A stretch of 64,000 nt of DNA from the NCBI RefSeq assembly GCF_046105845.1, contig NZ_CP151004.1. One strand, written 5' to 3'. The notes below the pieces were generated by a model, which worked only from the letters and a program-made list of their open reading frames with translations, did no database searches and was not told the origin of the DNA. Shown one piece after another: positions 23,526 through 24,207 of the stretch (position 1 is the first letter of the stretch; every line of letters begins with the position of its first letter). This DNA is from Escherichia coli. Its GTDB lineage: Bacteria; Pseudomonadota; Gammaproteobacteria; Enterobacterales; Enterobacteriaceae. Both the position numbers and the translations under genes were made by a program.

Positions 23526-23626
23526 AACTCCTGAGCAGGCGGCACTATGCCGCTTTCATAGGAGTTCTGAATGCTGGTGCTTTCTGTATGGCATAACCAT
23601 GCCTCTAACGGTTAAGTGCCTGCAGC
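23526..23626. repeat. ~100-bp direct repeat, copy 1
   Basis: aactcctgagcaggcggcactatgccgctttcataggagttctgaatgctggtgctttctgtatggc... near-identical to copy at 25343; contains hairpin gcggca-cta-tgccgc followed by ttt. Confidence 0.8.
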
Positions 23627-23895
23627 ACATGTTGCGGATCATTGGCAATCGCTCGCAGCAAAGCCTTTGCAGGCCCAGTCGGTGAACGTCGCCCCTGCTC
23701 CCAGTTACGCAACGTGTCTACGCTTACGGAAATAAGTTCGGCAAATTTAGATTGTGACAACCCTGAAGCGCGGCGTATTTCTTTGATTTTCATAGCATCA
23801 ACTTCAAAAGTCCGTGAAGGCTGTCGCGTTCCTTCAATAATTTCATTCATCTGGGCCATGCTGTGAGTCAACCGCTCAAAAAGTGCCTTATCCAT
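23605..23895 (-). CDS. HTH (XRE-type) antitoxin, HigA-like
   Basis: 96-aa ORF directly downstream of and abutting the toxin gene; XRE HTH IKEIRRASGLSQSKFAELISVSVDTLRNWEQGRRSP. Confidence 0.75.
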   Translation of the reverse strand: MDKALFERLTHSMAQMNEIIEGTRQPSRTFEVDAMKIKEIRRASGLSQSKFAELISVSVDTLRNWEQGRRSPTGPAKALLRAIANDPQHVLQALNR

Positions 23896-24207
23896 TTACC
23901 ACCTCGTATTTAACAACCGGAGCATTGCTTTTTCCTGGGGAGACAGATCATCTTTAATACCCTTACGATAAATAAGCAGTAATCTGATCTCATAATTTTT
24001 AACCTGATGAAAGTAAATAACCCTGACACCAGCACGTTTCCCCTTTCCTCCTGACACCCATCGAACCTTTCTTAACCCACCAGTTTCAGGTATTACCTCA
24101 CCATAGTCAGGATTCAAGGCCAGGAAAAACTGAAAACGACTGAATTCATCGTCGGTCAGCAGTTTTTGAACATCTTCAGTAAAAATTTCCGTTTCGATGA
24201 AGAGCAT
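23896..24207 (-). CDS. RelE/ParE-superfamily toxin, HigB-like (toxin-first gene order)
   Basis: 103-aa ORF; RelE-like core ...GGLRKVRWVSGGKGKRAGVRVIYFHQVKNYEIRLLLIYRKG...; upstream of its antitoxin as in higBA modules. Confidence 0.75.
   Translation of the reverse strand: MLFIETEIFTEDVQKLLTDDEFSRFQFFLALNPDYGEVIPETGGLRKVRWVSGGKGKRAGVRVIYFHQVKNYEIRLLLIYRKGIKDDLSPQEKAMLRLLNTRW

Follow-up and report, generated by a model that had tools for sequence, protein, structure and literature searches.

Two small genes that abut each other in the 64-kb stretch of Escherichia coli DNA analysed here (the window) raise the question of whether they form a toxin-antitoxin module and, if so, to which of the known lineages such a module belongs. 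The original prediction was a HigB/HigA-like type II module in which a gene for a RelE-fold toxin is followed directly by a gene for an XRE-HTH antitoxin. Our results showed that the pair is, with good confidence, a chromosomal type II toxin-antitoxin operon of the Vibrio cholerae higBA2 type. It belongs to the V. cholerae HigB-2/HigA-2 lineage, in which Pfam 'RelE' (PF06296) toxins are combined with NadS antitoxins. The assignment is based on homology, conservation of the catalytic residues, predicted fold, gene order, operator motifs, distribution and purifying selection. In the literature that could be searched, no publication reporting experiments on the E. coli pair turned up, and accession searches of the literature for WP_000897305 and WP_000356395 found no paper.

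Organization of the gene pair

Both ORFs were located at exactly the coordinates that had been claimed for them, and the strand, which had been left unstated, is minus. The toxin gene (24207..23896, minus strand) is a 103-aa ORF with an ATG start and a TAA stop, and its product is predicted to be a HigB-2-type RelE-fold mRNA endonuclease. The antitoxin gene (23895..23605, minus strand) is a 96-aa ORF with an ATG start and is of the HigA-2/NadS type. The stop codon of the toxin lies directly against the start codon of the antitoxin (TAAATG), and the predicted toxin-first order and abutting of the two genes can be read from this junction and the ORF coordinates. Strong homologues were found for both the toxin and the antitoxin, which indicated that the ORFs are more than chance. 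The plus-strand ORFs overlapping this stretch are all short.

The toxin

Residues 2-99 of the toxin aligned with residues 4-101 of the V. cholerae HigB-2 chain (VcHigB2) as an ungapped match (phmmer, PDB sequences; E 1.2e-19 to 1.2e-18), and the 'Toxin HigB-2' entries matched in the PDB were 5JA8, 5JA9, 8A0X, 5MJE and 9TV9. In VcHigB2, the residues R51, R64, Y82, and K84 are needed for the inhibition of translation, and their substitution with alanine caused 170- to 3000-fold losses (Hadzi et al., PMC5416850). With a constant alignment offset of +2, these residues correspond to R49, R62, Y80, and K82 of the E. coli toxin. All four residues defined in VcHigB2 are present in the E. coli protein, and the claim of a RelE-fold toxin stands on this point. 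In an alignment of 20 toxin sequences reaching down to 42% identity, R46, K47, R49, R62, and K82 were invariant and Y80 was at least 90% conserved; the alignment covered Enterobacterales chromosomes, plasmid homologues from Acinetobacter, Salmonella, Klebsiella, Shewanella, and Acetobacter, a Planctomycetes MAG, and VcHigB2 itself.

The AlphaFold model of the toxin (pLDDT 87.5, pTM 0.79) contained predicted strands at residues 2-5, 45-51, 60-68, and 73-81 and predicted helices at residues 7-16, 19-31, and 90-102. The predicted fold is RelE-like alpha/beta, and its elements, among them a pair of helices at the N-terminus and one at the C-terminus, follow the expected order. In a Foldseek search, the best matches of the model in the PDB were HigB2 chains (TM 0.80-0.88, rmsd 1.1-3.5 A), and the next were the RelE structures of M. 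tuberculosis and E. coli, in agreement with the RelE fold proposed originally.

The Pfam RelE model (PF06296) matched the toxin weakly (residues 43-101, 18 bits, E 0.0035), and precomputed PF06296 hits exist for several of the orthologues with 70-73% identity. None of the NCBIfam and PADLOC models matched the toxin. Owing to this weak Pfam match and the lack of a matching NCBIfam or PADLOC model, the toxin is labelled 'hypothetical protein' in most E. coli genomes in RefSeq. Near-identical proteins in other public sources are named 'type II toxin-antitoxin system RelE/ParE family toxin' or 'Toxin HigB-2', and with NadS or HigA-2 as the public names for the antitoxin, the module is of a kind already known to public annotation.

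The antitoxin

The XRE-HTH nature of the antitoxin was borne out by matches to Pfam HTH_3 (E 1.9e-9) and to NCBIfam NadS (NF041265), the latter spanning antitoxin residues 5-89 and model positions 3-87 of 94 with 61 bits, the cut-off being 60. As a single sequence, the antitoxin matched V. cholerae HigA-2 (VcHigA2) in the HTH half only (E 1.7e-8), and a family profile made from nine antitoxins of related loci matched VcHigA2 over its full length (residues 3-99, E 4.8e-16) with the N-terminal helix included. The N-terminal segments in the profile match were DKALFERLTHSMAQMNEIIEG in E. coli and RDLFAELSSALVEAKQHSEG in V. cholerae. In V. cholerae, this segment of VcHigA2 folds onto the toxin and thereby neutralises it (PMC5416850). 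The structural model of the E. coli antitoxin consisted of a predicted helix at residues 3-21, a linker of lower confidence and a five-helix HTH domain, and its best fold match was 5JAA. In this protein, toxin binding would fall to the N-terminal helix (about residues 3-21), and the XRE helix-turn-helix would take up the C-terminal part (about residues 35-95).

The gene that follows the toxin gene was annotated 'nadS' in four of the five plasmid loci examined and 'transcriptional regulator' in the one from Acetobacter. In practice, NadS is the name that PGAP gives to HigA-2-type antitoxins; literature searches for the origin of this name and for its link to toxin-antitoxin biology found nothing. 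A PGAP-annotated 'nadS' has been reported in a PIRT-Seq paper to be expressed in K-12 BW25113 (locus RS26030; PMC12350097). Since no DNA-level match to the module was found in K-12, that gene may be a diverged, possibly orphan, member of the NadS family elsewhere in the K-12 genome.

Putative operators upstream of the toxin gene

The 55 bp before the toxin start contain two putative operators, O1 and O2. O1 (24244..24262, no strand) is a 19-bp site, GGTACGT-CAATG-ACGTACA, whose core at 24245-24261 is a perfect 8-bp inverted repeat, GTACGTCA-t-TGACGTAC. O2 (24213..24227, no strand) is an imperfect copy that reads TAAGCCAATGGCGTA on the minus strand; its centre is 33 bp from that of O1, and it ends 6 nt before the toxin ATG. 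The pattern TACGNCANTGNCGTA, with one mismatch at most, had two matches in the window, namely O1 and O2, against 0.18 expected.

The operator of VcHigA2, which has been footprinted and co-crystallised, is TGTACGC-N5-GCGTACA (PMC11006873). O1 has the GTACG core and the 7+5+7 geometry in common with this operator, whereas the innermost base of the half-site is T in E. coli O1 and C in the VcHigA2 operator, and the E. coli module has two sites in place of the single one reported for V. cholerae. The operator motif was also found upstream of the orthologues in Citrobacter, Enterobacter, Erwinia, and Klebsiella, usually in two copies, and the site equivalent to O2 in Erwinia is a full palindrome. 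The homologue on an A. baumannii plasmid has one copy of the motif, which lies after the -10 element. Among the four base-contacting residues of VcHigA2, N72 and R77 are kept as N64 and R69 of the E. coli antitoxin, while D60 and R63 stand in place of R68 and E71. Because of these two replacements, we infer operator recognition from the similarity of the motifs only, and on this ground binding of the antitoxin at O1 and O2 can be expected with good reason.

Promoter and translation signals

The only consensus-like promoter match was a candidate sigma-70-like element, TTGTTA-16 nt-TATAAT (24209..24236, minus strand), which agreed with the consensus at 10 of 12 positions, overlapped O2 and, of the orthologues compared, occurred in the E. 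coli one only. The match was not significant alone, as 2.1 such matches were expected by chance in the scanned region. Its -10 hexamer TATAAT ends 2 nt before the toxin ATG, so that transcription driven by it would begin within the toxin ORF. In the relatives, a plausible promoter is formed by TTGACG inside O1 and TAATAT or TATTAT 16 nt later, with O2 just past the start site. This element is weakened in E. coli, where it reads ATGACG-15 nt-TACTCT.

A Shine-Dalgarno-like sequence for the antitoxin, GAGGTGG (23899..23905, minus strand), lies within the last codons of the toxin, 6 nt before the antitoxin ATG, and would serve the translation of the antitoxin; the sequence around it, read directly, is ...ACGAGGTGGTAAATG. 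The same GAGGTGG is found in the orthologues of Citrobacter, Enterobacter, and Erwinia. No Shine-Dalgarno sequence was found at the toxin start in E. coli or in any of the orthologues compared, and this shared lack therefore looks like a design feature. With a strong Shine-Dalgarno sequence for the antitoxin and none at the toxin start, the antitoxin should be kept in excess. An Rfam scan of positions 22600-24600 gave nothing above chance.

Transcripts from the TTGTTA-16 nt-TATAAT element would begin in the first toxin codons, and the antitoxin alone could be translated from them via its own GAGGTGG. It is conceivable, if improbable, that E. coli has rewired the expression of the module in this manner, the promoter of the relatives having decayed and the new element giving an antitoxin-only mRNA, and that the linkage helps to keep the yiiE-fabY segment. 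If this were true, the built-in antitoxin-only mRNA would settle the dosage problem that toxin-first operons face. Only two points of the module are mildly unusual, its pair of operators and the odd geometry of the promoter in E. coli.

Distribution and genomic context

The 603-bp module was present at 95% identity or more in 2636 of the 5426 complete E. coli genomes, with one copy in each, and was full length in 2635 of the 2636 carriers. An apparent second copy per genome proved not to be another toxin-antitoxin module, and a query with the module only found exactly one place per carrier. Located downstream of fdoGHI-fdhE, with yiiE on one side and fabY (yiiD) on the other, the module sits in DNA of lowered GC content (0.33-0.47). 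In K-12 MG1655, yiiF, yiiE, and fabY are present and positions ~23004-27262 of the window (roughly 4.3 kb) are missing, which confirmed the statement in the original prediction that K-12 has no such pair at this locus. The module is one of the accessory toxin-antitoxin loci by which about half of the E. coli strains differ from K-12.

The two ORFs just downstream of the antitoxin (23308-23520 and 22968-23246, both minus) are on the same strand, lie in the segment absent from K-12 and are annotated by PGAP as hypothetical. One of them, of 70 aa, is Arg/Cys-rich and preceded by a strong Shine-Dalgarno sequence (CAGGAG), and it matched phrog_4499 (E 8e-14), whose function is unassigned; the other, of 92 aa, matched nothing in the searches. 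Between fdhE and the variable segment lie yiiF and yiiE (21870-22112 and 22331-22576, both minus), which encode small paralogous proteins and share stretches of ~84 bp that were about 79-80% identical in the comparison with K-12; yiiE is annotated as a CopG-family regulator.

An alpha/beta hydrolase gene of the hormone-sensitive-lipase/acetyl-esterase type (24436-25344, plus) is divergent to the toxin-antitoxin pair. Its product scored 235 bits with LipP1, below the cut-off of 350, and with a GC content of about 0.52 the gene exceeds its neighbours. A 617-aa ORF (25513-27366, minus) lies in low-GC DNA (0.36-0.40) and carries the sequence CKSAKDRT, which resembles a CX5R phosphatase motif. Searches of Pfam, NCBIfam, PHROG, and PDB sequences gave no match for this ORF and did not support a SopB/IpgD-like phosphatase. 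About the first 100 nt of it are left in K-12, and in strain AR_0067 the gene is truncated, annotated as a pseudogene and adjoined by a transposase gene.

A module that is carried by about half of the strains in a low-GC variable segment might, with the same molecular mechanism, have abortive-infection phage defence as its main role, in which case phage infection would release the mRNase. Both proteins match phage families, phrog_5869 (E 3.5e-27) and phrog_2104 (E 6.8e-26), both of unassigned function. The family is also common on mobile elements, with homologues at 35-47% identity in 888 plasmid records, and RelE/ParE toxins have been discussed as defence toxins (2025 preprint). However, PADLOC offered no model for the toxin, the antitoxin gave only generic HTH hits and no defence genes were recognised among the neighbours, so defence as the main role is unlikely. 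For a higBA2-type operon, which we prefer, phage defence is one of three candidate roles, the others being the stress response and the stabilisation of the variable yiiE-fabY segment.

Related loci and selection

A scan of genome contigs for related loci returned nine loci, a small number that is explained by the single-sequence query, which finds close relatives only. Adjacent toxin-antitoxin pairs were observed at seven Enterobacterales chromosomal loci, of which L007 and L009 have a toxin gene interrupted by a nonsense codon, in one Planctomycetes MAG and at all five plasmid loci examined. At every one of the 13 related loci encoding this HigB-2-type toxin family, the toxin gene came first and the antitoxin gene followed immediately downstream. 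One further locus (L011, a 29% match) had no recognisable toxin-antitoxin pair.

Both genes are under purifying selection. Relative to the Citrobacter and Enterobacter orthologues, synonymous codon changes exceeded non-synonymous ones, and the differences fell mainly at third codon positions, with examples of 23/11/54 at the three positions for the toxin and 11/6/49 for the antitoxin. A single in-frame nonsense codon was present in the toxin gene of Citrobacter werkmanii NBRC 105721 (L007, 3001-3312) and in that of Klebsiella spallanzanii SB6411 (L009, 3001-3312), the antitoxin being intact in both, which is the pattern expected if the toxin is harmful.

The same nonsense alleles could be taken as a sign that the module is decaying or silenced, with a toxin that in E. 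coli is inactive or hardly expressed and an antitoxin that persists mainly as a stand-alone transcription factor. The toxin start without a Shine-Dalgarno sequence, the weakened promoter (TTGACG to ATGACG, TATTAT to TACTCT, with a 15-nt spacer) and the reported expression of a nadS-annotated gene in K-12, which is without the module (PMC12350097), are consistent with this explanation. Yet the toxin ORF is full length and keeps all catalytic residues, all but one of the carrier genomes have it in full length and with 95% identity or more, and the excess of synonymous changes holds for it as well; moreover, a Shine-Dalgarno sequence that is missing from all orthologues looks like a matter of design. 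We regard decay as quite improbable. [quoted passage not shown]

Proposed mechanism

By analogy with the V. cholerae system, the E. coli pair would combine a toxic mRNA-cleaving protein with a DNA-binding antitoxin that neutralises it. The toxin is expected to be a ribosome-dependent mRNA endonuclease that cuts mRNA in the A site by using R49, R62, Y80, and K82. The antitoxin should be a dimeric XRE-HTH protein that inactivates the toxin by folding its own N-terminal segment (residues ~3-30) onto it. Its HTH domain should bind the two operators of the GTACG-N7-CGTAC type, the perfect O1 and the imperfect O2, which flank or overlap the promoter, and thereby repress the operon. For the annotation, the evidence supports the labels HigB-2-type toxin and HigA-2-type antitoxin, and beyond this the module has little significance.

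Comparison with known systems

The higBA-type label of the original prediction held, with one refinement: the pair falls within the V. cholerae HigB-2/HigA-2 lineage and not within the family of plasmid Rts1 HigB or K-12 HigB (YgjN). The Rts1 and K-12 HigB/HigA systems (YgjN/YgjM in K-12) likewise have the toxin first, an HTH antitoxin and an mRNase of the RelE superfamily, and these three features account for the common name 'Hig'. The Rts1 and K-12 HigB toxins belong to the Pfam HigB-like family (2025 preprint), and the E. coli toxin studied here had no hit to the Pfam HigB-like families. The K-12 HigB structure (5IFG_A) was a marginal match to the toxin model, at rank 38 with E 0.49 and TM 0.41. 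In PvHigBA, the antitoxin neither covers nor remodels the active site (PMC5416850). The HigBA2 system of A. baumannii (Armalyte 2018) was considered as support and set aside, as its toxin is of the Gp49-domain family and differs despite the common name; the A. baumannii plasmid locus L012 encodes a homologue of the E. coli toxin and is separate from that system.

[quoted passage not shown] The toxin model matched RelE structures with a TM of about 0.55 at a sequence identity of about 10-18%. RelB is a ribbon-helix-helix antitoxin, unlike the XRE-HTH antitoxins of the HigA-2 type, and relB precedes relE, so that the gene order is reversed relative to the toxin-first E. coli module. The catalytic Tyr is located on strand beta4, unlike that of RelE in the C-terminal helix (PMC5416850).

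MqsR/MqsA is also a toxin-first system, and the HTH of the antitoxin resembles the C-terminal domain of MqsA. The antitoxin matched Pfam MqsA_antitoxin with E 1.3e-4 and the MqsA model TIGR03830 with 40.3 bits, below its cut-off of 61.8, in the HTH part only (model positions 64-123 of 127). It contains no cysteine, and therefore the CxxCG motifs in the name of TIGR03830 are absent. In sequence, the toxin bears no relation to MqsR.

The known system with which the pair was classed is V. cholerae HigB-2/HigA-2, encoded by the higBA2 operon of the superintegron (PDB 5JA8, 5JA9, 5JAA, 5J9I, 8A0W, and 8A0X). Both are toxin-first operons; the toxins are homologous over nearly their full length and have identical catalytic R, R, Y, and K residues and a Gly/Lys-rich beta2-beta3 loop, and both antitoxins consist of an N-terminal neutralising helix, which is predicted in E. 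coli, and a C-terminal XRE-HTH. The 'sliding' repeat in beta3 is IIYY in VcHigB2 and VIYF in the E. coli toxin, and the module lies in a variable segment of the E. coli chromosome as opposed to an integron cassette in V. cholerae. With two sites and a slightly different half-site, the E. coli module would provide a second natural operator set for the well-studied DNA-recognition system of VcHigA2.
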